Below are positions 5,797-32,358 of a stretch of 32,915 nucleotides of DNA, in pieces (positions within the stretch are counted from its first letter, which is position 1; each line of letters opens with the position of its first letter). This DNA is from a virus (Duplodnaviria; Heunggongvirae; Uroviricota; Caudoviricetes): positions 1-32,915 of the IMG/VR virus record IMGVR_UViG_2526164631_000025. The stretch is one strand, 5' to 3'. The position numbers and the translations under genes were made by a program. Under the pieces are notes generated by a model that made no database searches, had not been told where the DNA came from, and worked only from the letters and a program-made list of their open reading frames with translations.

Positions 5797-7161
5797 TTAT
5801 TTATGATGATCTGGTGTAATAACGTCGCCCAAAACACGGCTAATTCTTTCTCGTAATTGCTGGGTGCCAGCACTCTTGATCGCTGTATCGTGGAGACGGT
5901 TAACCAGTTCGCGATAAACATGCGGCTTAATTCGGATACGTTCACCGGTGACGCCCTTTCCTGGCGCTGGCACCGAACTATCCGGAATATCCGGATAGTT
6001 GCCAGCCAGTCTACGCAAAACGGCCTTAACAGCCTCAATACGGTCATCATCGCAATTTTCCAGCGTATCTATGCGATCGAGCATGATGATGGCGTTATCA
6101 ATATCAGGATTGCCGGTCCACTCATTACCGCGATTGGATTCGGCAGCCTGGTTGCCGCGTACTGGTTGATTATCGGCTTTACCCAGTCTGTCGTTGCTGC
6201 ATGAATGCCCTTCCAGCAAGGCCAATGCTTGTCGCATGAAATACGCAATATGTTTGCCGTGGTAATCGTCTTCATCGATGTGAAAAGCGATACTGCGGAT
6301 GTATTCAATTGCGTTTTCAATGGCCTCCGGCGTTATCGGCGCTGACATATTTTGATTTTGGAGTGCCAAGACGCGGCTGGCATCCTCAACACCTTTAACG
6401 GCATCTGCGCAGTAGTTATAGCGATTGCATTCCACTAACTTCTGCTTGAGATTTTCAATTGCTTGCGCGACATCAGCCTGTATTTCTGGAACTGGCGGAA
6501 CGGCTGTTTGCTCTCGAACGTCATTAGTCGCTATCGGTTCTGCTGCCAACTGACTGGCATATTTGTTAATGGTAACGATAAGCTCTTGCTCAGCCTCATC
6601 CAGACAATCACCGATACCTCGCCTGTCACCGTCAAAATCATCGAAATCGGCACGAATCTTGGCAACCTTCTGGATTGCGGACAACACCTCACTAGGAATT
6701 ACCGGATAGTTGGTTGACGTTTCCGCGATTTCCCGAAAATTATTGGTTGACGAATTCTTGTTTTCCCGAAAGTTTCCGGACTGAAGCATGGCGGCGCGGC
6801 AGGCGTTCCATATTTCGGCAGCAATATCGCGCTCGCTATCGGTTAATTTGTACGTGGAAACATAGCCAGAGAGCATTTCTACGTTTTCCGGAGTTGCTTC
6901 TTCCGGCACTACCGGCGCTGGCGGGGCGATGCGTCCAAGCAACTTATTTACCTCTTTCGCCATCGCGTCATATTTATCTAAATGGCGATTAGCTTCTAAG
7001 CAGACTCGGCGCATCTGATCTGAGTTAACTCGTTTAACTGGATCTGCTTCCAGCGATGCCAGCGCAATCCGTGCCAGTTCCATTTGTTCACCACGGGTAA
7101 GCCCGTTTTCAAGCGGATTTTTAATGAACAATTCAATACGTTCTTTGGTAATAGTGGTCAT
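5797..7161 (-). CDS. hypothetical protein (454 aa)
   Basis: ATG with AAGGA SD; C-terminal 37 aa (KPHVYRELVNRLHDTAIKSAGTQQLRERISRVLGDVI) are homologous to an internal segment of the DUF4406-like protein. Confidence 0.7.
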   Translation of the reverse strand: MTTITKERIELFIKNPLENGLTRGEQMELARIALASLEADPVKRVNSDQMRRVCLEANRHLDKYDAMAKEVNKLLGRIAPPAPVVPEEATPENVEMLSGYVSTYKLTDSERDIAAEIWNACRAAMLQSGNFRENKNSSTNNFREIAETSTNYPVIPSEVLSAIQKVAKIRADFDDFDGDRRGIGDCLDEAEQELIVTINKYASQLAAEPIATNDVREQTAVPPVPEIQADVAQAIENLKQKLVECNRYNYCADAVKGVEDASRVLALQNQNMSAPITPEAIENAIEYIRSIAFHIDEDDYHGKHIAYFMRQALALLEGHSCSNDRLGKADNQPVRGNQAAESNRGNEWTGNPDIDNAIIMLDRIDTLENCDDDRIEAVKAVLRRLAGNYPDIPDSSVPAPGKGVTGERIRIKPHVYRELVNRLHDTAIKSAGTQQLRERISRVLGDVITPDHHK

Positions 7162-7171
7162 TTGTTAGTCC

Positions 7172-7927
7172 TTAAACTGCTAGTTGCAATTGCATTTCAA
7201 AGCGGTCGCGTTGTTCACAATACGCAAGAGAACCAGGGCTATTGTGTGCCTCAATCCGTTCTACCATTAATGCTGCGCGTGTCTCTTTACTTGCAGGTGC
7301 ATAAGCCCCAGACCAGGCTTTATCAATACCGATGTTTCGAGCGACGTTCGTACTATCTGCGCTGGCTAAGGGTAATTTTGTGAATATCAGCGGATTTAAC
7401 ATGCGCAATCCATGTAGTTTCGTAACCGGCTGACCATGCCCATCAACAATGTGACGAATCAGGTCTTTCATTCTGGCTACCGCAAGAGTTGGGCGCTTTA
7501 CGTCATAGTCGCCACAACTACCGATAGCCACTCGCGGAAGCTCATTGCACAAATGAATAAATCGCTCGTCACTTTCATTCATGTGCCACACTGGAACGCC
7601 AGCTAGTTTTCCGTGAGGCCACTCATTCAGAAGCGCATCATTTTCCTCCTCTCCGCCATCAATAACATCCGGGATAATGGCAAAATCGAATCCTGGGTGA
7701 TTCTTCCAGCGAGCAACAAACTCGTAGTAATCGCTCCAGTCGATTTTGTTTTTGCCAGCTGCTTTCCAGGCGGTGAATGCACCGTTGTCCAGCGCGAACG
7801 ACTGACAGTATTCAGCCGCGAGATTGATCTGGCCTGAATGCGCAAAACTGATAAACGCATGTCGCCCTTTCCATGCTCTCATTGCGCACGTATCAGGAGT
7901 AATAGGCCCACCGTGGTAGTGAATCAT
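7172..7927 (-). CDS. hypothetical protein (about 251 aa)
   Basis: ATG at 7927 one nt after the upstream stop, preceded by a perfect AAGGAG; N-terminus MIHYHGGPITPD. Confidence 0.6.
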   Translation of the reverse strand: MIHYHGGPITPDTCAMRAWKGRHAFISFAHSGQINLAAEYCQSFALDNGAFTAWKAAGKNKIDWSDYYEFVARWKNHPGFDFAIIPDVIDGGEEENDALLNEWPHGKLAGVPVWHMNESDERFIHLCNELPRVAIGSCGDYDVKRPTLAVARMKDLIRHIVDGHGQPVTKLHGLRMLNPLIFTKLPLASADSTNVARNIGIDKAWSGAYAPASKETRAALMVERIEAHNSPGSLAYCEQRDRFEMQLQLAV

Positions 7928-7928
7928 C

Positions 7929-8444
7929 TCACTCTCCTTTGATGCGAATGCCAGTAGCGCGGATTGCATCGATGACTTCAGAAACTTTGTATGCCATTAC
8001 CGTTTGGTAATCATCGTGAAAATCTGTTCGATGAAGCATGCTGCTACGTTCCGGGAGCAGTATTTCCCGCTCCTCCAGTTCAGCAATACGCTTGCTCCCA
8101 TCAGAGATAACGCCTTCGTAATATTCACGCTGCTCGTTGAGTTTTGATTTTGCTGCTTCAAGCTCAACACGCAGTTTCCCTACCGTTAGCGCAATATCCT
8201 CGTTCTCCTGGTCGCGGCGTTTGATGTATTGCTGGTTTCTTTCCCGTTCATCCAGCAGCGCCAGCACGGTTTCTGGTCCGGTCAGAAATTTGAAGGCGTT
8301 GAGCGCATCAATATCCACACCGTAATCTTTAAGTTCCTGTTCACTTAACAAATCATCATCAACTGGCAACATTAACAGGCGTTCCATTGCTGGAGTTGCA
8401 CGTTCTGCCGCCTCACGCAGTGCCTGGTAATTAATTTTGCTCAC
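7929..8444 (-). CDS. Ead/Ea22-like coiled-coil protein
   Basis: N-terminus MSKINYQALREAAERATP and a coiled-coil block LTVGKLRVELEAAKSKL shared with paralogs in this window. Confidence 0.6.
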   Translation of the reverse strand: MSKINYQALREAAERATPAMERLLMLPVDDDLLSEQELKDYGVDIDALNAFKFLTGPETVLALLDERERNQQYIKRRDQENEDIALTVGKLRVELEAAKSKLNEQREYYEGVISDGSKRIAELEEREILLPERSSMLHRTDFHDDYQTVMAYKVSEVIDAIRATGIRIKGE

Positions 8445-8781
8445 TGACTGCCTCCTTCTTAATCAGTTTACACAGGTGCTCCACAGCCACAGAGAGTGCA
8501 TCCACCGCTCGTTTATCCAGACGCGGGGCCAGAGCAAGCAGTTCATTTATTGCAATCTGAATACCATGCTCCGCCGCCAGCGCCGCGCGATTGCTCTCCA
8601 GCTCTGCAATTTGGCACATGGCATCAATATTTTTGTCCTCCAGGCGCTTAATTTCGCCTAGGAGTGCCAGTGCCACCGATGGCGTGAACGCCATACGAAA
8701 CGCCACAAAATTTTGATGCATAGGTTCTGTTTCTACTGCAACTGCCGCATCTCGCAGTGCCTGATAGTCAATTTCGCTCAC
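8431..8781 (-). CDS. Ea22-like coiled-coil paralog (about 116 aa)
   Basis: GTG start with GGAGA SD; SEIDYQALRDAAV and IAELESNRAALAAEHG modules. Confidence 0.5.
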   Translation of the reverse strand: MSEIDYQALRDAAVAVETEPMHQNFVAFRMAFTPSVALALLGEIKRLEDKNIDAMCQIAELESNRAALAAEHGIQIAINELLALAPRLDKRAVDALSVAVEHLCKLIKKEAVSEQN

Positions 8782-9529
8782 TGGTTGTCTCCACAAAATT
8801 CAATGCTGCATGCTCCTGTTTAATTCCCATACGCTCTAATGCGATACGAAAAATTTCTGGATCTTTTTCTATTCCTGTAAATCGGCGCCCTGATTGTTGG
8901 CACGCAACGCCAGTAGTTCCGCTACCCATAGTGAAATCCAACACTGTGTCGCCAATATTGCTATATGTCTCAATCAGATATCTCACCAGAGCCAGTGGCT
9001 TTTGTGTTGAATGAAGTGCCTGCTTTTGCTTGTCGCTGGAGAATTTCTGCACGTCTCTCGGATAGCGACTTGTTGAATCGTAAACGACCTTTTTCAGCGC
9101 ATCGCCATATACATCAGTATTCAGCCTACCTCTTGTTGAGGTTTTTCTGGCGTGCCCATACGTCATCTGTGGGTTGTATGTCGGTTGCTTTCTGTAAAAA
9201 ACTTCAATATTTTCATGCGCTCTTAAAGGTTGTTTTTTTGCGTTCAAAAATCCTGTCGCGTGTGGCTTTTCCCAAATCCATTCTGTTTTCCAGTCACGAA
9301 GATTGCTGTTGACCAGCACGCTGGTAAAAGGCTGAGCGGAAAACAGAACAATTGCAGCGTTCGGTTTGGAAATACGGTAAATCTGCTTCCACATCAACTG
9401 CAGGTCGAGAACAGAATCCCAGCGACACCGAGTTGTTCCATATGGAATATCGGCACATACAAGATCTACGGAGTTGCTGGCGATTTGCGGAAAGATGTCA
9501 AAGCAATCTGCGTTGTGAAGGCAAATCAT
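8768..9529 (-). CDS. orphan DNA methyltransferase, beta-class N6-adenine/N4-cytosine type
   Basis: Motif IV-like DIPYG near the N-terminus and motif I DFTMGSGTTGVA near the C-terminus (beta-class order); no adjacent restriction endonuclease. Confidence 0.8.
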   Translation of the reverse strand: MICLHNADCFDIFPQIASNSVDLVCADIPYGTTRCRWDSVLDLQLMWKQIYRISKPNAAIVLFSAQPFTSVLVNSNLRDWKTEWIWEKPHATGFLNAKKQPLRAHENIEVFYRKQPTYNPQMTYGHARKTSTRGRLNTDVYGDALKKVVYDSTSRYPRDVQKFSSDKQKQALHSTQKPLALVRYLIETYSNIGDTVLDFTMGSGTTGVACQQSGRRFTGIEKDPEIFRIALERMGIKQEHAALNFVETTSERN

Positions 9530-11013: not shown

Positions 11014-11111
11014 AATGCATACCGACTCTGTTTTGTTCCGAGCGGTAAAATAATATGTTAGAAAACTAAAATCAATGTTCTAACGCAATTTTGAGTGCGT
11101 AAATGATTTGA

Positions 11112-12605: not shown

Positions 12606-12850
12606 TGTGGTGGCTCCTGCTTTTCTGCCTTTAATACCATGCGAGAACCATCATCCAGCTCCCAATTAATTTCACCGCCTTCAGCCATGACTAGATGCCA
12701 AACGAGTTGTGCGGCCTCGTTGGTTACATCACGACCGCGATCATTGCCGACACGACGTTTTGTTCCATCCCCTAAGTCACGCATTTTTGCCAACACGATG
12801 GTTTTTGATAGCGGTGAAAAACCAAGCTGTAGTCGTGCGGTATTACTCAC
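12602..12850 (-). CDS. hypothetical protein (82 aa)
   Basis: Coupled ORF. Confidence 0.4.
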   Translation of the reverse strand: MSNTARLQLGFSPLSKTIVLAKMRDLGDGTKRRVGNDRGRDVTNEAAQLVWHLVMAEGGEINWELDDGSRMVLKAEKQEPPQ

Positions 12851-13488
12851 TGTTTGCCTCCTTTTCGAAGCTGGGCAGCGAACCTATCAGCTGCATCCGC
12901 GCAAGCAGAAGCAACGGAATCAAAAAATGGATCATCTCCGGTATCGCGCATCGTCAAAGCGAATGCCTCCACCCCTTGTGCCTGTATTTCTACAAGGTAT
13001 GCCTTAGATGTAGTGCTTTTCGCCTCGCCTAATTCGTTATGAGCGATGTTCGCTATACATGCGATGTCTATATCTGGATGATTAATTGGGCAATGGCTAA
13101 GAATTGCCTCAAGTGCTGCTTTTTTGCTTTGGCATTCCGCCACCATCGCCCCGCAATTGCTTTCATATTCGGCAATACGCTGTTTAGCAGCCTCCAGCTC
13201 AACACGCAGCTTCTCAAGCGTTAGAGCCATCTCCATGTTCTCGTCCAGCAGTTCAATCACATCAGGATCGCTATCATCAACTACTGTTATGCGCGATTTT
13301 TTGTAATGCTCGTCAGCATAAGTTCGTCCAGTTTTGAAGCATCCGTCGTCCTCCATGCCGGAACAGGCATAAACAACATGTGATCCAGATATGCGCTGCA
13401 TTGACATTTCCTCGCCACAAACAGAGCATTTAGGCGCTGGTTTCGGTGAAAAACGTTCACGTAACGTATGATAGTAAAGCTCGCTCAC
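12847..13488 (-). CDS. Ea22-like coiled-coil paralog with N-terminal Cys-rich region
   Basis: LEKLRVELEAAKQRIAEYE module and C-terminal ...AAQLRKGGKQ shared with neighbours. Confidence 0.5.
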   Translation of the reverse strand: MSELYYHTLRERFSPKPAPKCSVCGEEMSMQRISGSHVVYACSGMEDDGCFKTGRTYADEHYKKSRITVVDDSDPDVIELLDENMEMALTLEKLRVELEAAKQRIAEYESNCGAMVAECQSKKAALEAILSHCPINHPDIDIACIANIAHNELGEAKSTTSKAYLVEIQAQGVEAFALTMRDTGDDPFFDSVASACADAADRFAAQLRKGGKQ

Positions 13489-14282
13489 TGGCTGCCTCCT
13501 TTGCGAAGCTGTTCAGCGATATCTTCGAGAACGCCATCAGAGAATGAGCGGTCAAAATCGCCTTCCCGCGCATTAGCCATAAACTCAGTAGAGGTAAGAA
13601 TCATCCGGGCAATATCCGCGGCGTTCTTCGCAGTATCATCAATAAAACCAGCTTCCCAAGCAGCCAGCATTCTGTTCGCCACAAAGTAAGCGCCCTCCTT
13701 GCGTGCTTCAGTCTTCACTTCATCCAGGAAAGTGTCGGTCGCAGGAGTGGTTTTTTGTGGTGATAGGGCGATACGAATTGTTTCAAGAGCTGGATCTATT
13801 TCCACTGTTGGCACTTTGATAAAACCAAGCTGCACGCCATTCATAATGAACGTGCGGCGATCCTCACATATCGCCTTCAGTCTCGCATTCTCCGCAGCCA
13901 GCGCCGCGCGATTACCCTCCAGCTCTGCAATGCGCTGTTTTGCGGTATCAAGTTCAATCGATAATTTTTCCAACTGCTCTTTATGCTTCTTATATTCCTG
14001 ATATGCGTGCCAGGACTGACCTTTGCGCACACTATCAGTAATATCAGTAATCTGTTCTGGTGTTAGCGTGGTCAGTGGCTGTGCTGGGAAAATCAGCACT
14101 TTCCCGGAATCCCAATCAAAACCAGCGTGAATTGACTGAACCTCAACTGAGGGTGTTGAACCAATGCTGCCAGGCGAATGAATAACGATTGTTACATCCA
14201 TATCGCGACGATGGCTGTGGTTGTTGGACAAAATACGATTCACCAACTCAGAAAATTTGGAGAATTTCATGCGGAGCCTCAA
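13485..14282 (-). CDS. Ea22-like coiled-coil paralog (265 aa)
   Basis: IELDTAKQRIAELEGNRAALAAENARLK and C-terminal ...EQLRKGGSQ modules. Confidence 0.5.
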   Translation of the reverse strand: MRLRMKFSKFSELVNRILSNNHSHRRDMDVTIVIHSPGSIGSTPSVEVQSIHAGFDWDSGKVLIFPAQPLTTLTPEQITDITDSVRKGQSWHAYQEYKKHKEQLEKLSIELDTAKQRIAELEGNRAALAAENARLKAICEDRRTFIMNGVQLGFIKVPTVEIDPALETIRIALSPQKTTPATDTFLDEVKTEARKEGAYFVANRMLAAWEAGFIDDTAKNAADIARMILTSTEFMANAREGDFDRSFSDGVLEDIAEQLRKGGSQ

Positions 14283-14689
14283 TATGCAAAATAGACCGTT
14301 GCCACGCCGTTATAGTGATCAAACGATACGGCGTTTACTTCATAACTGGCCGGGAGCTTCGAGCCAAGAACGTATCCGGGCCACGTTTTCCATGGAATTT
14401 CTCTATTCTCACTACCCCCATATACCGTACATCCAAGTGAACCTACAGCTTCATTAGAACGCGTGCCGCACGTTATGAATCCCAGATTTTGCTTACTGCT
14501 CTTAATGGTGATTGAGTGAACGCTGGCTGATGCATTAGCAGCACGCTGTGCCTGTTGGTTTGCGATATTCGCAGAGTTCGCAGCAGCTACAGCAGCCGTA
14601 GTCGCGGCGGTAGAGGCTACAATAGCTGCTGAAGCATGCACTTGTTGGATATTCACCAACAATGCCGCGACAAAAATCATCTTCTTCAC
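14279..14689 (-). CDS. small secreted protein (136 aa) with signal peptide
   Basis: MKKMIFVAALLVNIQQVHA signal-like N-terminus followed by an Ala/Ser/Thr-rich region. Confidence 0.5.
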   Translation of the reverse strand: MKKMIFVAALLVNIQQVHASAAIVASTAATTAAVAAANSANIANQQAQRAANASASVHSITIKSSKQNLGFITCGTRSNEAVGSLGCTVYGGSENREIPWKTWPGYVLGSKLPASYEVNAVSFDHYNGVATVYFAY

Positions 14690-15174
14690 TTGTCAGCTCC
14701 TTTGCGAATCTGTTCCGCCCATTCTTCAAGGGATTTCTCCGCATATTCACCGGACAGGCCATCAATCGGGTGCGGTTCATTAGCCAACTCTTCTTTCGCT
14801 GACAGAATCATGCGTGTAACGTCGAAAACTTCACGTAAAGACTTATTGATAAATCCGTGGTTGAAAGCAGCAGCAAGACGGCTTGCGGTATAGTTAATCC
14901 CCTCGTTGCGAGCCTCCGCACGAATTTCAGCCAGAAAAGCATCGGTGGCTGGAGTTTCGCTGTGGTGCAGGGCATCGTTGATAATCATTGCAGCAACTCC
15001 GGCCTGCCCTGCATCCGTGACCGACACATGCTCAAGAGTTACAGCCATTGCATGTTTCAGCCCAGCATTCTCCGCCGCCAGCGCCGAGCGTTCTTTCTCA
15101 AGTCGGGAAATTTCCGTTACATACTCAGCGTTACGCTCTGCCAGTTGTGCTGGCGTTAAACCTTCAGACTTCAT
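14686..15174 (-). CDS. Ea22-like coiled-coil paralog (162 aa)
   Basis: ISRLEKERSALAAENAGLK module and C-terminal ...EQIRKGADK. Confidence 0.5.
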   Translation of the reverse strand: MKSEGLTPAQLAERNAEYVTEISRLEKERSALAAENAGLKHAMAVTLEHVSVTDAGQAGVAAMIINDALHHSETPATDAFLAEIRAEARNEGINYTASRLAAAFNHGFINKSLREVFDVTRMILSAKEELANEPHPIDGLSGEYAEKSLEEWAEQIRKGADK

Positions 15175-15481
15175 GTACTCTCCTTTCGAAATAAACGTAC
15201 TGATTAATCATGCTCAAGGGCATTTCGAGTTTTTCTGCGATCTCACGGCGGGGAACACCACACCGATGAAGCTGCCGTGCCAGTTCTATATCGCCCTGCC
15301 GGTATTTGGCTGACGGGTGAAAGTCTCCTTTCAGAATCATGCAGATCCGCAGTTGCCGCGCTTTGGTTCTGACAGCACTACCGGTACGCCCGATCAGCCT
15401 CCCAATACTCACGACTGTCATAGTCCCGGCGCACTGGCGGAGTATCATGATTTCCGCCCTTCCCCATCCCCGCCAGCTCAC
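15164..15481 (-). CDS. hypothetical protein (105 aa or shorter), possible HTH
   Basis: Start overlaps the upstream stop; REIAEKLEMPLSMINQYV HTH-like segment; true start uncertain. Confidence 0.4.
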   Translation of the reverse strand: MSWRGWGRAEIMILRQCAGTMTVVSIGRLIGRTGSAVRTKARQLRICMILKGDFHPSAKYRQGDIELARQLHRCGVPRREIAEKLEMPLSMINQYVYFERRVHEV

Positions 15482-16101
15482 GCTGACATCCTCTGAGACA
15501 TAAACTCCACAAAACGAACTGCATCTTCAGAAACAACGCCGCATGACTTCAGATAATTCATTGCGTCATTAGGTAGCGGATTAGTTGGTTCGGCATTTGC
15601 CAGGGATTGAGATAAACGCGTGATTAATTTGACCATTCTCCGCTGCCGGAGGTTGTATCCTTCAGCCAAAGACAGGTAACTGGAAAGGGTTTTGCTTAAG
15701 CGGGCGCGAAGCTGATCCGTGCCGTGACATTCAATAGCAACATCACGTAACGCATTTACCAGTTCACGGTAAATATGCGGAGCAACCTGGCATTCAATGT
15801 TGGTTTGTGACTCATAAATTACAGTCAGCCCCAGCTTTTCAGCCAGCGCGTGCTCTGCGCGAGCACCAACCGATTCTTCCCATTGATTGAGCAGATAGAT
15901 CGCATCAGCAGAACGCACCATTGCCAGGCAAATATCCATGTATTCACTCTGGCAAAGGCCACCAGGTAACACAGCTGGATTCAGAACGATATGCCCTTCA
16001 GACATCAGCTCGCTCGCTTTCGCATTAAACGCAGCACGGTTGTAATCTGGATAACCAGTCATCGGCCCCGCGATGTAAATTTTCAAAACACGTTTCACCA
16101 T
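15478..16101 (-). CDS. DUF4406-like (nucleoside 2-deoxyribosyltransferase-like fold) protein with C-terminal shared module
   Basis: N-terminus MVKRVLKIYIAGPMTGYPDYNRAAF...LNPA typical of DUF4406; residues about 105-141 match the C-terminus of the 454-aa protein. Confidence 0.55.
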   Translation of the reverse strand: MVKRVLKIYIAGPMTGYPDYNRAAFNAKASELMSEGHIVLNPAVLPGGLCQSEYMDICLAMVRSADAIYLLNQWEESVGARAEHALAEKLGLTVIYESQTNIECQVAPHIYRELVNALRDVAIECHGTDQLRARLSKTLSSYLSLAEGYNLRQRRMVKLITRLSQSLANAEPTNPLPNDAMNYLKSCGVVSEDAVRFVEFMSQRMSA

Positions 16102-16256
16102 CAAAATTTCCCCAAAATCGTGACGCAAAACATAAGCACTGCGAAAAGCTCAATACCAAGCTCAAGTAGCGCCAACGCCCCGAAAAACAACACATAGAAC
16201 AGGCCAATCTCATTCACAGATGGCTGGTGGATCGCACTTAAAGCTATAAGCATCAT
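16101..16256 (-). CDS. small hydrophobic membrane peptide (51 aa), first gene of the leftward operon
   Basis: Not in the ORF track (below 60 aa); ATGATG start preceded by GGAGGA; stop TGA overlaps the DUF4406 ATG (ATGA); sequence MMLIALSAIHQPSVNEIGLFYVLFFGALALLELGIELFAVLMFCVTILGKF. Confidence 0.45.
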   Translation of the reverse strand: MMLIALSAIHQPSVNEIGLFYVLFFGALALLELGIELFAVLMFCVTILGKF

Positions 16257-16373
16257 GTCCTCCAAACAGTTATCAGGAATGATATTAATGTTTTGTGTTA
16301 GAAAATCAATTTTGAATATCTAATCATTTTGATCAATCATAGAAAAATCGCTGAAAAGTAAGAGGCAGCCATC

Positions 16374-16951
16374 ATGCAGAAACAGAGCTATTGGGAGAAA
16401 CAGAGACAAAAAGCCATGCAAAAATTGGCTGACCCAGCCTGGCGAGAGGAACAAAGGGCAAAGCGCCTTCAACAAGCTCAACGCCAGCAGCAGCGAGCGA
16501 GAGAAAAAGCCGCATCGCCTGAATATCGGCAAAAGAAAATTGAAAAAGCAAAGCAATATGAACAGCGGAGAAAAGATAAAGCTGTATCCGCTCCGTCCAA
16601 AAAACACGCACGTCACGCGGCCTGAAAGGCAGATCACTCACAGCCGATGAACGCCGGATACAGACCGCTATCGGTGCTCTCCCCTGCATTGCCTGCCATA
16701 TTCACGGGCAACATAGCCCAGTGGTATCCCTGCACCATATCTTCGGGAGAACGGCAGAGAACGCACATAGATATGTCCTCCCTTTGTGTAAATGGCACCA
16801 CCAGTACGCAGCGCCAGCCGAGGTCCGAGAACAATATCCCTGGCTGGTCCCTGTTCATGCTGACGGAAAAATAGGCGGAAAAGCAGATTTCATGCGGCAC
16901 AATGCCGATGAAATGACGTTGTATCAGATGGCGATTGAATTGATAAATTAG
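16374..16951 (+). pseudogene. HNH endonuclease, apparently split by a 1-nt frameshift in an A6 run (16599-16604)
   Basis: Frame 1 (16374-16625) encodes a basic K/R/Q-rich 83-aa peptide; the next frame is open from 16580 with no canonical start and encodes CIAC...HHIFGRTAENAHRYVLPLCKWHH (complete HNH signature); one extra A would fuse them. Confidence 0.5.
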
Positions 16952-17450: not shown

Positions 17451-17499
17451 AATACTGACTGTTGCGCCCTGGCATTATCGTGGGGTATATTTCTACGGC

Positions 17500-17740
17500 A
17501 CCTTAGAAAAACGGGTGCCGGGATTGGAACCCCGGATAATGCAAAAGGCGACACAGACGCCGAAAGCGTCTTTTTTTGTGTCATGCCATCGCACAGCCAT
17601 ACGTAGCGTTTAGCTCAGAGATCAATGGTAGTGCTGGCTGGGCTGCCGAAAGGCAGGCCGGTTCCCTTTTGCGCCGGTAGTTCCAACCCAGTCAGTGCTA
17701 CCGCCATTGAGATTGGAACCTCACGCGGTAGCTCCTTAAA
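17500..17740 (+). ncRNA. putative c4-type antisense RNA / structured leader upstream of icd-like gene
   Basis: ORF-free stretch with hairpins, an internal terminator, GATTGGAACC repeats at 17521-17530 and 17711-17720 and complementary GGTTCC/GTTCCAA between them; sits directly upstream of icd-like and antirepressor-like genes as in P1 immI. Confidence 0.3.
17556..17577 (+). terminator. rho-independent terminator
   Basis: GACGC-CGAAA-GCGTC hairpin followed by T7. Confidence 0.55.
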
Positions 17741-17978: not shown

Positions 17979-18919
17979 TGAATCTGTCCATCTCTCAAAA
18001 AGCGACAATGACCAGTATTGAGATCGCGGAACTGGTAGGTAAGCGTCATGATAATGTGAAGCGTACCATTGAAGTATTAACTAAAGGTGGTGTCATTCAA
18101 TTTCCTCAAATTGAGGAAATTGAAAATAAACAATCAGTTGGCCCTCGTCGATTTTCCAAGGCTTACATATTTGAAGGCGAACAAGGAAAACGAGACAGCA
18201 TCATTGTCGTCGCGCAGCTCTCTCCGGAATTCACCGCCCGGCTGGTGGACCGCTGGCGCGAACTGGAGAATGCCCGGGTACAGTTAAAATCAAAAGCCGA
18301 AATTCTGGCTGAAATGGCGCAAATGCATCTTGAGCATGAACGCCGGATCAACGCCGTAAATGCCCAGGTAGCCGAGGTATCAGCACAAGTATCGATGGTC
18401 GCTGAAACACTCGAGCAAATCAAGAAAGGCAATATTCCGGAAGGCTACATTGGCTACCGCCAGCTGGCGGCGAAATGTGGCCTGACTGAAGCCAAATGTC
18501 GCAACCTGGTTAACGCTTTCCGGATTCCCACCGATACACATGAGTTTTTAACTCCAGATGGTTTGCTTGCGCGACGCTCCATTGTGGCCCTGGTCCCCTT
18601 CCGGAAAGCCTTTAAGCAGGTGATGTCGGAGGCAGAACCACGCAATAAACGCTGGTATCATCCAAAGATGGGGATGTTTCAGGCAATCCACCATCCTGTG
18701 CCTGAAAGCCCAAAGGATAATCTGTCACTACATACCGTCAGAGAGAAGATCAGGACTGGATACGCAACAGTGTGTCGTCGTTCTTCCTGGCCTGAAGGTA
18801 TATGGGTGTGGCCCGAAGGTGGATCACGAAAGCACTGGCGCACCATCCGTGACGGGAAAATCCATGCTATTGATTTAGCTCCAGAGGATGTTATTGCTAT
18901 GGACTGGATTGTTAGTTAA
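17978..18919 (+). CDS. Rha-family phage regulatory / antirepressor-like protein
   Basis: N-terminal TSIEIAELVGKRHDNVKRTIEVL matches the Rha N-terminal signature; 313 aa. Confidence 0.6.
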   Translation: MNLSISQKATMTSIEIAELVGKRHDNVKRTIEVLTKGGVIQFPQIEEIENKQSVGPRRFSKAYIFEGEQGKRDSIIVVAQLSPEFTARLVDRWRELENARVQLKSKAEILAEMAQMHLEHERRINAVNAQVAEVSAQVSMVAETLEQIKKGNIPEGYIGYRQLAAKCGLTEAKCRNLVNAFRIPTDTHEFLTPDGLLARRSIVALVPFRKAFKQVMSEAEPRNKRWYHPKMGMFQAIHHPVPESPKDNLSLHTVREKIRTGYATVCRRSSWPEGIWVWPEGGSRKHWRTIRDGKIHAIDLAPEDVIAMDWIVS

Positions 18920-24428: not shown

Positions 24429-24434
24429 TTGATA

Positions 24435-24460
24435 ACATAGGCGGTTATCCCGCCTATGTT
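24435..24460. terminator. bidirectional terminator hairpin
   Basis: ACATAGGCGG-TTATC-CCGCCTATGT inverted repeat between convergent genes. Confidence 0.5.
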
Positions 24461-29262: not shown

Positions 29263-29306
29263 CCATTTGTGTTAGATAATTAACGCGTATTTTCTAACAC
29301 AAATGG
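29263..29306. promoter_or_regulatory. perfect 14-bp inverted repeat overlapping the rdgC-like RBS
   Basis: CCATTTGTGTTAGA (29263-29276) and TCTAACACAAATGG (29293-29306) separated by a 16-bp AT-rich spacer; the right arm abuts the SD/ATG of the 29313 gene. Confidence 0.6.
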
Positions 29307-30218: not shown

Positions 30219-32358
30219 CCTTCGATATGGTTCAGTTTGCAGTGGAATTGAAGCCGCGAGCATTGCCTGGGAACCGTTGGGTATGCGTCCGGCGTGGTTT
30301 GCTGAAATTGAGCCTTTTCCATCTGCCGTTCTTGCGCACCGCTGGCCTCATATCGCCAACCTTGGCGATATGACAAAACTTGCCAAAAAAGTCCTGGCTG
30401 GGGAAATCGAATCCCCTGATGTGCTCGTCGGGGGAACACCTTGTCAGGCATTCAGTATCGCGGGATTACGTGGTGGGCTTGATGATGAGCGCGGCGCGCT
30501 AACTTTGAAGTATGTGGAGCTTGCAAATGCAATTGACGACAAACGGTCTGAGTCCTTCCTCAAACCGACAGTTATCGTCTGGGAAAATGTCCCAGGAGTC
30601 CTGTCATCGGCAGATAACGCCTTCGGATGTTTCCTTGCCGGATTGGCTGGAGAAGATGCACCATTTGAACCAGGTGATCGACCTGAATCAGGAAAAAGTA
30701 ACGCGTTCTGGCGGTGGGATGGCAAAACCGGTTGCCATGCTCCAAAGTGGCCGCAGTGTGGTTGTATTTATGGACCGCAGCGAAAGGTGGCCTGGAGAAT
30801 ACTTGATGCCCAATACTTCGGAGTGGCACAACGACGCCGACGCGTGTTTGTTGTCGCAAGTGCTCGAACAGACCTCGATCCCGCAACGGTACTTTTTGAG
30901 TTCGAAGGCGTGCGCCGGGATATTGCGCCGAGCAGAGGCGAGGGGAAGGAAGTTGCCGGAAATGTTGGAAATGGCATTAAAAGCGGGAGCCATTGGGATA
31001 ACCCTGTAAATCCTCACCCGACACTTGCCCGATCGCACAATACCGGCGGGACGGGTGCAAGCAACCAGGAGATTTTTTCACAGCGCGGAAGTGGGCTTGT
31101 CGGTGCTTACCGGATGGTAGCATTTGGTGAGTATGCGGATGATGAGGCGGCTTCCACGGTCAAGGCCAGAGATTTTAAGGATGCAACCGACCTGGCTGTT
31201 TTTGACAGTGCGAACGTCGGAGTGGCAGTACGTCGCTTAACGCCTGTCGAGTGCGAACGCCTGCAGGGCTTTCCTGACGGGCACACGTTGATCCCTACGG
31301 AAAAGCGTAAAAAAGTTTCTTCAGATGAACTGGCATACCTTCGCAATCACTATCCAGATTTAAGCGAAGAAGAGGCCGCGATGCTTGCAGCTGACGGACC
31401 GCGTTACAAAGCGATCGGCAACAGCATGGCAGTTCCTGTTATGCAATGGATAGGGTGTCGCATTCTTGCGACCGTAGCGGATAAACAGCAAAAAACAATA
31501 AATACCATTACCTACACAAGAAAACTCCGGACTCCGGATGAATATGAACGCCCAATATTCAAATGGGTAGGCGGTAAATTCTCAGAGTTGCCTACAGTGC
31601 TTGAGCATCTACCACACGGCAAGCGGTTAATAGAACCATTCGTTGGTGGCGGTTCCGTATTTACGAATGCAGGATTTCGCCACAACCTGCTTAATGATAT
31701 TAACGGTGACCTGATTAACTTCTATCAGACATTGCAGCGAGAGGGACATTCGCTCGTCACGCTGGCATATAGTTTTTTCAAAAATTACAACAACGCTGAC
31801 GCTTACCTCGAAGTGCGCGAGGCATTTAACAGAGGAAAGTATGACCAGCTACATCATGCTGCCGCCTTTTTGTACCTTAATCGGCACTGTTTTAATGGCG
31901 TAACGCGGTACAACCAAAATGGCGAGTTCAACGTGGGGTATGGCAAATACAAAGCGCCCTACTTCCCACATGCAGAGATGGAGGCATTTTTGGCTGATGA
32001 CGTACTCAAAAACACGTCCTTTGTATCAGGTGACTTTGCTGGCGTCATCGAGGCGGCTGGTGAAGGCGATGTGATTTTTTGCGATCCGCCGTATGAACCG
32101 CTGCCGGATACAGAAGGGTTTACCAGTTATTCAGGAAATAGCTTCCGTTTCGACGAACAGAAACGGCTGGTATCTCTATTGGTGGAAGCCCACCAGCGCG
32201 GCGCTAAGGTAGTGATAACAAATAGTGGTGCGCCAAACATCCGTGAACTATATGAACGAAACGGGTTTAAAGTACATCATATGGCAGCCAGACGGTCGGT
32301 GTCCTGCAAGGCGTCAACACGTGTAGTTGCTAACGATATAATTGCAATAATGAAGTAA
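30202..32358 (+). CDS. bifunctional DNA methyltransferase: N-terminal C5-cytosine domain fused to C-terminal Dam-like N6-adenine domain
   Basis: C5 motifs [47 protein letters not shown]; Dam-like KWVGGK and CDPPYEP; proposed GTG start at 30202 with GGAGG 9 nt upstream (the ORF track start at 30130 would overlap rdgC by 89 nt). Confidence 0.8.

Follow-up and report, generated by a model that had tools for sequence, protein, structure and literature searches.

The 32,915-nucleotide (nt) stretch of viral DNA analysed here (IMG/VR record IMGVR_UViG_2526164631_000025, positions 1 to 32,915; hereafter the window) is identified by its sequence as a D6-type phage-plasmid of the P1 family, and carries a small open reading frame (ORF) whose stop codon overlaps the start codon of a gene encoding a DUF4406 protein. 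Comparison across related loci indicates that the small ORF is a genuine gene, conserved and subject to purifying selection in its own reading frame. The two genes are probably the first two cistrons of an accessory early operon, divergent from ref, in a D6-type, P1-like phage-plasmid. We have little doubt about the reality of the small gene, the purifying selection acting on it, the conserved overlap, the identity of the DUF4406 domain, the homology of a module that the DUF4406 protein shares with a second protein, and the conservation of an operator-like motif. The explanation as a whole, which extends to insertion of the peptide into the membrane, coupling by re-initiation, the identity of a repressor, and every biochemical activity, we regard as probable, and the non-toxic role that it gives the peptide as tentative.

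The assignment to the D6 type rests on the correspondence of the small ORF and the DUF4406 gene to orf88 and orf89 of Escherichia phage D6 and on D6 being the phage matched. When the small ORF was compared by tblastn with 50,697 phage records, D6, a P1-like plasmid prophage, was the sole match, at 100% identity and spanning all 51 query residues. The annotated orf88 product (ASR76402.1) is 100% identical over its 50 residues, and the product of orf89 (ASR76425.1), the gene that follows, shares 83% identity with the window's DUF4406 protein over 96% of its length (203 versus 207 residues). The D6 genes have the same placement beside ref and the same one-base overlap, with no substantive difference from the window. 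A 1.4-kb segment around the locus matches 99 complete Escherichia coli genomes, every time on a plasmid, of about 90 kb, and at 80-99.9% identity. The best-matching plasmid carries genes for a terminase, a Cre-like recombinase, Phd/Doc, Ref, an Icd-like protein, a Rha-type antirepressor, and tail proteins.

Both genes are already on record, as D6 orf88 and orf89, each labelled hypothetical protein, and in PHROG 8890 and PHROG 5781, which alongside the D6 genes are the closest known families; no function is assigned there. The original prediction, made from the letters of the window and a list of its ORFs, had called the small ORF unannotated. This holds for the RefSeq annotation of the closest plasmids and fails for D6, for the divergent alleles annotated by the Prokaryotic Genome Annotation Pipeline (PGAP), and for PHROG 8890. 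For annotation, the value of the present analysis lies in a real, selected 50-codon gene that RefSeq skips in the closest D6-type plasmids, a group often met in human and livestock isolates of E. coli, Salmonella, and Shigella. Added here are the purifying selection on the peptide, its invariant acidic core, the conserved overlap, the breadth and age of the shared module, and a candidate operator; current understanding is not overturned by these findings.

The small ORF and its overlap with the DUF4406 gene

Read on the minus strand, the locus presents GGAGGA (16263-16258), a C, an ATG at 16256 and a second ATG at 16253, and then remains open to the TGA at 16103-16101. The hydrophobic frame with a GGAGGA Shine-Dalgarno (SD) sequence described in the original prediction is present (grand average of hydropathy, GRAVY, 1.64). 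Its reported length of 51 residues applies to the frame from the first ATG; we place the conserved start at the second ATG, giving a product of 50 residues, because the first ATG is missing from the most divergent clade and GGAGG stands at a fitting distance of 5 nt from the second one. A 50-residue product agrees with the D6 annotation and with the 50-position profile of PHROG 8890, which is matched over its full length (E 2.5e-35, residues 2-51 of the frame on profile positions 1-50 of 50).

Related loci were taken from IMG/VR (32), PLSDB, RefSeq plasmids, and D6, and the 41 that hold the conserved core, comprising 19 distinct nucleotide alleles in three clades, made up the main scan. The frame is open in all 41, with clades down to 60-70% nucleotide identity; counting one further plasmid, an intact copy is carried by 42 of the 43 related loci of good quality that were read. 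The record of pSa1423-90k, poor in quality and with many frameshifts, was left out. In comparisons between clades, a proportion of 0.62-0.76 of synonymous sites differs in the ORF's own frame (pS) versus 0.15-0.31 of nonsynonymous sites (pN), and the own-frame pN/pS of 0.17-0.46 is the lowest of the six frames in five of five pairs (Fisher p 9e-11 to 3.5e-3). Differences pile up at third codon positions (14/7/24 in one example), and 12 consecutive residues, the core LALxELGIELFA, are invariant save x. A peptide 100% identical to that of the E. coli plasmids was also found on JAFAFN010000164.1, a 3.2-kb contig labelled 'MAG: Actinomycetes bacterium', which is almost certainly a mis-binned or contaminating enterobacterial contig.

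The reported overlap between the TGA of the small ORF and the ATG of the DUF4406 gene is confirmed, as a single shared base (16101) in a TGATG rather than an ATGA arrangement. TGATG occurs in 41 of 41 main-scan loci, including alleles with differing flanking codons, and a GGRGA SD-like element lies 7 nt before the DUF4406 start. A probe running from the ref start through the intergenic region and the small ORF to the DUF4406 start matched 119 plasmid records, all of which cover at least 80% of it. On a Shigella dysenteriae plasmid (NZ_CP026808.1, 1744-2037) the DUF4406 protein is reduced to the 97-residue domain, lacking tail and module, and a separate gene follows; despite this, the small ORF and the overlap are kept. 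Ribosomes ending the peptide at UGA would restart at the overlapping AUG, and the two products would be made together. We read this coupling from the overlap itself, since no conserved or unusually stable structure was predicted at the junction. Fusion of the peptide to the DUF4406 protein by programmed frameshifting was considered and rejected: the junction reads AAA-UUU-UGA-UGG, with DUF4406 in the -1 frame and no in-frame X-XXY-YYZ heptamer, and a +1 slip on UUU-U leads into the wrong frame.

Operator-like sites and proposed transcription of the operon

The small ORF is the first cistron beyond the intergenic region that separates it from the divergently oriented ref. This region measures 117 bp between the two genes' ATGs (the first one in the case of the small ORF) and is poorly conserved between clades save for one block, TATGRTTGATCRA followed by TTAGAWAWTCAAAATTGAWTTTCTAACACA. 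Here TTAGAWAWTCAAAATTGAWTTTCTAACACA forms an inverted repeat (12+12) whose arms match perfectly in the most divergent clade and carry two mismatches in the window; 24-26 of its 26 bases are kept over three clades in which synonymous sites are near saturation. The full 26-bp palindrome has only one match in the window within 3 mismatches, at 16298-16323. The pattern TTAGAAA-N12-TTTCTAA, with up to 2 mismatches, has three copies in the window, where 0.16 would be expected, and five in 70 kb of D6, where the expectation is about 0.5; the D6 sites lie next to lpa, next to pmgS, and in the icd/repL, ref/orf88, and ppp/pdcB gaps. All eight copies fall between annotated genes or listed ORFs, and the three in the window have TTTTCTAACA in common. 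Each arm of the palindrome holds, by eye, a TTGAAT/TTGATT hexamer that may serve as the -35 element of one of the divergent promoters; the putative promoter of the small ORF, with its -35 within the right arm, agrees with the consensus at 8 of 12 positions.

P1 likewise has operator copies dispersed before several operons; its C1 operators are annotated at the ref and pmgT promoters (Oref and OpmgT), and Oref overlaps the ref promoter. The motif described here differs in forming an inverted pair, P1 also lacks an orf88 homologue, and the 17-bp, asymmetric P1 C1 consensus ATTGCTCTAATAAATTT has no match in the window even with 3 mismatches allowed. The distribution and conservation of TTAGAAA-N12-TTTCTAA suggest that it is the operator of the D6-type prophage repressor, in which case the peptide/DUF4406 operon would be silent in the plasmid prophage and on at induction. 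A repressor, probably the C1-type prophage repressor, would bind 16298-16323, overlapping the putative -35 elements of both divergent promoters, and derepression would allow the operon to be transcribed. If this is true, the motif would map the immunity regulon of this phage-plasmid group. The small ORF had been placed at the head of one long leftward operon; its position as first cistron stands, and the presence of a second operator-like site within the 98-bp gap at 11014-11111 makes it probable that the cluster is divided into two or more transcription units.

The window's copy of ref itself (16374-16951, plus strand) has A6 at 16593-16599, one A fewer than the near-identical plasmid NZ_CP122828.1 (A7). 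As a result the Ref reading frame changes after codon 77 and stops at 83 codons, not 192; the copy is either a pseudogene or the result of a homopolymer sequencing error.

Predicted products and their possible roles

The assignment of the second gene to DUF4406 was borne out by a match of residues 7-96 to positions 2-91 of the 91-position profile PF14359 (E 8.9e-34, 116.2 bits versus a gathering cut-off of 22). The same domain matches phrog_355, and the tail weakly matches the C-terminal end of phrog_660. A sequence search of the protein against the PDB gave nothing significant. An AlphaFold2 model from 61 sequences shows an alpha/beta domain at residues 7-96, with a predicted local distance difference test (pLDDT) score mostly of 84-97, and five lower-confidence helices after it. 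Foldseek comparison with the PDB placed nucleoside 2-deoxyribosyltransferases (NDTs) on top (2a0k_A, E 1.9e-4, probability 1.00, about 100 aligned residues), with MilB/BcmB CMP N-glycosidases and Rcl lower down.

The likeness to the NDT/Rcl (DNPH1)/MilB-BcmB superfamily lies in the N-terminal fold of about 100 residues and its glycine-rich strand-loop (YIAGPMTG). Residues G12, P13, and S77 never vary, and G79, A80, and E83 are almost invariant; the S-x-G-A-x-x-E motif would put E83 where NDT enzymes carry their catalytic glutamate, an equivalence drawn by eye. The protein departs from the superfamily in its smaller domain (about 95 residues versus 130-160 in solved enzymes), in an identity of 15-24%, and in an extra helical C-terminal extension. 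According to the structural model, the DUF4406 domain has an NDT-like fold, and our best guess, because of the fold matches, the glycine-rich loop, and the candidate catalytic-glutamate motif, is that the protein is a cytoplasmic enzyme acting as an N-glycosidic transferase or hydrolase on nucleosides or nucleotides. In the literature searched, DUF4406 receives only passing mention, in three papers.

The peptide is predicted to be a membrane-type small protein with one long hydrophobic helix. Every 19-residue segment across residues 12-50 scores at least 1.5 in hydropathy, and the AlphaFold2 model has a short helix at 2-8 and a continuous helix at 13-49 (mean pLDDT 85), which favours a single span over a hairpin. 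Its sole charged residues are E15, E31, E35, and K49, and the invariant glutamates E31 and E35, sitting four residues apart, would share one helix face. We propose that the peptide inserts into the inner membrane and acts via this conserved acidic face, the likeliest modes being self-association and the binding of a membrane protein, in a role other than that of the phage's lysis or addiction toxin. Such a non-toxic, membrane-modulating role is possible, and we advance it with some reserve.

The original prediction had offered Kil-, holin-, or Hok-like labels for the peptide, and these are not supported. On family searches, charge pattern, and gene positions, the peptide belongs to none of the holin, Hok/Gef, and Kil/Icd families. 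Holins, Hok/Gef, and lambda Kil/P1 Icd are likewise small phage or plasmid products, some of them single-pass membrane peptides, and at least one transmembrane segment, as in holins, is predicted here from hydropathy and the helix model. The peptide differs from holins and Hok in being net acidic, with no basic N-terminus and no charged C-terminal tail; where holins have a charged hydrophilic tail, its sequence ends ...CVTILGKF, with one lysine. Its neighbours are ref and the DUF4406 gene rather than a lysis cassette, and D6 carries its holin lydA and antiholin lydB at 30.7-31.5 kb of its record. Three alleles of the peptide gave no match to Hok_Gef or any other Pfam family even at E up to 10; NCBIfam and PADLOC contained no matching family, and PADLOC produced no credible hit among the first genes of the operon. 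No Sok-type antisense RNA was found at the locus, the Rfam gathering scan of the window for known families giving only C4 and isrK. No family hit joined the peptide to Kil or Icd. Lambda Kil is non-hydrophobic, and both D6 and the closest plasmid have a separate, annotated Icd-like gene downstream of ref.

A GRAVY of 1.64, one long modelled helix, and a conserved acidic i/i+4 pair in the core, adjoining by eye a small/polar stripe of G17, G25, A28, and T45, could also belong to a membrane-damaging effector of the viroporin, Hok, or holin kind, in which an oligomer with the glutamate pair lining a pore would depolarise the inner membrane upon induction and thereby serve host shut-off, exclusion, or early killing. 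A position behind a probable repressor-controlled promoter is likewise what a toxic gene would need. We nevertheless consider such an effector unlikely, because the peptide resembles no holin, Hok/Gef, or other toxin family, has no antisense RNA family at its locus, lacks the basic N-terminus and charged tail, and belongs to a phage whose holin/antiholin and Icd genes lie elsewhere. Moreover, it would be co-translated with a metabolic-type enzyme, not with an endolysin or antitoxin.

The constancy of the pairing raises a second alternative, namely that the peptide is a membrane partner recruiting or activating the DUF4406 enzyme and that fixed stoichiometry is the point of the overlap. The ORF stands directly upstream with TGATG in all 41 loci, the 119 probe-matching plasmid records are all at least 80% covered, and the pairing outlasts the loss of the enzyme's C-terminal tail. 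Linkage within one phage lineage may, however, be mere common descent; the DUF4406 model lacks a hydrophobic surface element, and in other phages the DUF4406 gene stands alone with no upstream membrane peptide. A membrane partnership thus seems improbable. A bolder claim makes the orf88 peptide the first member of a new class of single-pass membrane effectors in phage-plasmids, obligately paired with an NDT-fold DUF4406 enzyme. Its two glutamates would work in a cation- or nucleobase-conducting oligomer or in a host-transporter clamp, and the two proteins might, for instance, make up a unit for membrane-linked nucleoside/nucleotide salvage or for anti-defence that is turned on at prophage induction; this we judge to be quite improbable.

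The conserved stop/start overlap and internal SD-like element, together with a predicted fold of the window allele that pairs the SD and AUG of DUF4406, might instead mean that the ORF is only a translational leader delivering ribosomes to the DUF4406 start and that its peptide is functionless. Purifying selection at the amino-acid level over the whole ORF, with synonymous sites near saturation and an invariant 12-residue core, a length held at 50-51 codons, and an mRNA structure that is neither conserved nor stabler than that of shuffles make this very doubtful. Finally, a chance, unexpressed frame in a 5' leader, to which the shortness of the ORF, its omission by RefSeq from the closest plasmids, and one frameshifted record might point, can be dismissed: at 30-40% nucleotide divergence the ORF still reads through in 42 of 43 good-quality loci, selection on it is frame-specific, and its SD and start are conserved.

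Several observations weigh against the explanation that we prefer, an operon under repressor control in which a membrane-inserted peptide is translationally coupled to the DUF4406 enzyme. In plasmid pF719-4 (NZ_OY754396.1) an extra G in a GGGG run cuts the small ORF to 30 residues. This could be a sequencing error or a tolerated or natural loss, and the truncated product matches a protein found in a search of 5.8 billion proteins. The peptide family is narrow: that search returned only relatives at least 83% identical, DNA and pattern searches added only clades of D6-like plasmids, and the comparative power therefore rests on three clades. The model of the peptide derives from a shallow alignment of five near-identical sequences. 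Predicted mRNA structures at the coupling site and at the start of the small ORF have z-scores of -1.0 to +2.3, none of them conserved. A sigma-70 scan of 15900-16700 found no promoter reaching threshold, the hand-read candidate falling below it. In YDC107_1, phiARM81mr, and Vibrio phage Cla, no small ORF is annotated directly upstream of DUF4406; the gene is stand-alone and about 100 codons long, and the genes immediately upstream have 80-237 codons. The pairing thus characterises the D6 lineage and not DUF4406 genes in general, and a functional tie between the peptide and the DUF4406 protein is hypothetical. An invariant acidic core, predicted to be transmembrane, and a fixed overlap with the gene for an enzyme of predicted nucleoside-transferase fold nonetheless make the pair a compact target for small-protein research.

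The shared module and neighbouring features

The segment that the DUF4406 protein was reported to share with the C-terminal end of a 454-residue protein is real. The two copies align without gaps, with 20 of 40 residues identical (E 3e-11), and are the only such ORF pair in the window; their ungapped BLOSUM62 score is 110, whereas 200 shuffles averaged 23.6 and reached at most 39. The segment has an unremarkable composition (3.8 bits), which argues against a low-complexity coincidence. The homology stands at the protein level, and the similarity sought at the DNA level is weak, 58 of 120 bases (48%), with matches at 19, 28, and 11 of 40 first, second, and third codon positions. Because third positions match at the level of chance, the copies point to ancient homology with no recent exchange within the genome. 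In the structural model the module spans a helix at 101-124, a short loop, and a helix at 131-148.

With the C-terminal half of the DUF4406 protein as query, a word-indexed search of proteins found only fragments of the same family, and the breadth of the module emerged from an exhaustive profile search. A profile of the two copies retrieved, from 1.84 billion, 929 cluster representatives with E up to 1e-3, of which 151 have E up to 1e-10, with the module usually near the C-terminus of proteins about 200 residues long. By tblastn it is present in the P1 pmgU frame, P7 Upf89.5, SJ46, RCS47, and EaA proteins of P22-like phages, and also in Klebsiella T7-like, T5-like, and Serratia phages. P1 PmgU, P7 Upf89.5, and P22-type EaA carry the same PH-YRELVN-L-D-A---G-QLR module at 42-60% identity; the usual carriers have EaA/PmgT-type N-terminal regions, whereas the window fuses the module to a DUF4406 enzyme domain. 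No Pfam family covers it in the 116 carriers scanned. Its partner domains include DUF551, Ead_Ea22, DUF3850/ASCH, dATP/dGTP pyrophosphohydrolase, and HNH.

Elsewhere, DUF4406 domains bear unrelated tails, such as an Ea22-like C-terminus (…GIRIKGE) and an EaA-like WNACRAA segment, and a further DUF4406 fusion involves the C-terminal part of the window's 14686-15174 protein. The Ea22-like paralogs that the original prediction listed are also present (PF13935 at 12847-13488; phrog_250/368 at 7929-8444 and 8431-8796). Its suggestion of active domain shuffling can be kept in part: the pattern of fusions to varied tails and domains is that of shuffling, which on these comparisons is right for the long-term history of the family across many phages, and 'active' does not apply between this genome's two genes. 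The module may serve as a portable protein-protein or targeting adaptor, which may explain the targeting of phage accessory proteins. With more than 900 protein clusters and no Pfam match in 116 carriers, it is a candidate for a new domain definition. Coordinates of the features discussed are collected in Table 1.

Table 1. Positions in the window of the two genes, their domains, and the candidate regulatory sites
Feature	Position	Strand	Remarks
Small membrane protein gene (predicted)	16101..16253	-	50 residues + stop (51 residues from 16256); D6 orf88 family, PHROG 8890
Shine-Dalgarno GGAGGA	16258..16263	-	GGAGG/GGGAG kept in all three clades
DUF4406 protein gene	15478..16101	-	207 residues, D6 orf89 family; ATG shares base 16101 with the small-ORF stop
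DUF4406 / NDT-like catalytic domain (predicted)	15814..16083	-	Residues 7-96
Shared module, copy 1	15670..15789	-	Residues 105-144 of the DUF4406 protein
Variable C-terminal tail	15481..15669	-	Residues 145-207; low pLDDT; absent in the 97-residue Shigella allele
Shared module, copy 2	5815..5934	-	Residues 410-449 of the 454-residue PmgT/PmgU-EaA-like protein (5797-7161)
Operator-like palindrome (TTAGATATTCAA-AA-TTGATTTTCTAA)	16298..16323	.	ref/small-ORF divergent intergenic region
Second operator-like motif	11058..11083	.	Gap between phosphatase and DUF968 (pdcB-like) genes
Third operator-like motif	29272..29297	.	Just upstream of rdgC
Putative sigma-70 promoter	16282..16309	-	-35 TTGATT 16309-16304, 16-nt spacer, -10 TAATAT 16287-16282

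Several further features of the window were noted. In the same operon, a 136-residue protein (14279-14689, minus strand) has a signal-peptide-like start (MKKMIFVAALLVNIQQVHASA) followed by an alanine-rich stretch, and no family match was found for it. A 265-residue protein (7172-7969, minus strand) matches positions 7-267 of the 509-position profile phrog_887, 'queuine tRNA-ribosyltransferase' (E 3e-103), and gave no hit in a Pfam scan; the match could reflect a DNA base-exchange enzyme resembling DpdA or no more than the non-catalytic portion of phrog_887. The two RNAs found by Rfam, the Hfq-binding RNA isrK (17498-17576, plus strand, 62.5 bits) and the C4 antisense RNA (17621-17708, plus strand, 76.7 bits), adjoin each other upstream of the icd/antirepressor genes and constitute the immI-type region of the element. 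Perfect inverted repeats with arms of at least 11 bases lie at 5976-6000, 18097-18123, 24434-24460, and 30348-30373, examples being AACTATCCGGAATATCCGGATAGTT within the 454-residue gene and TCAATTTCCTCAAATTGAGGAAATTGA at 18097.

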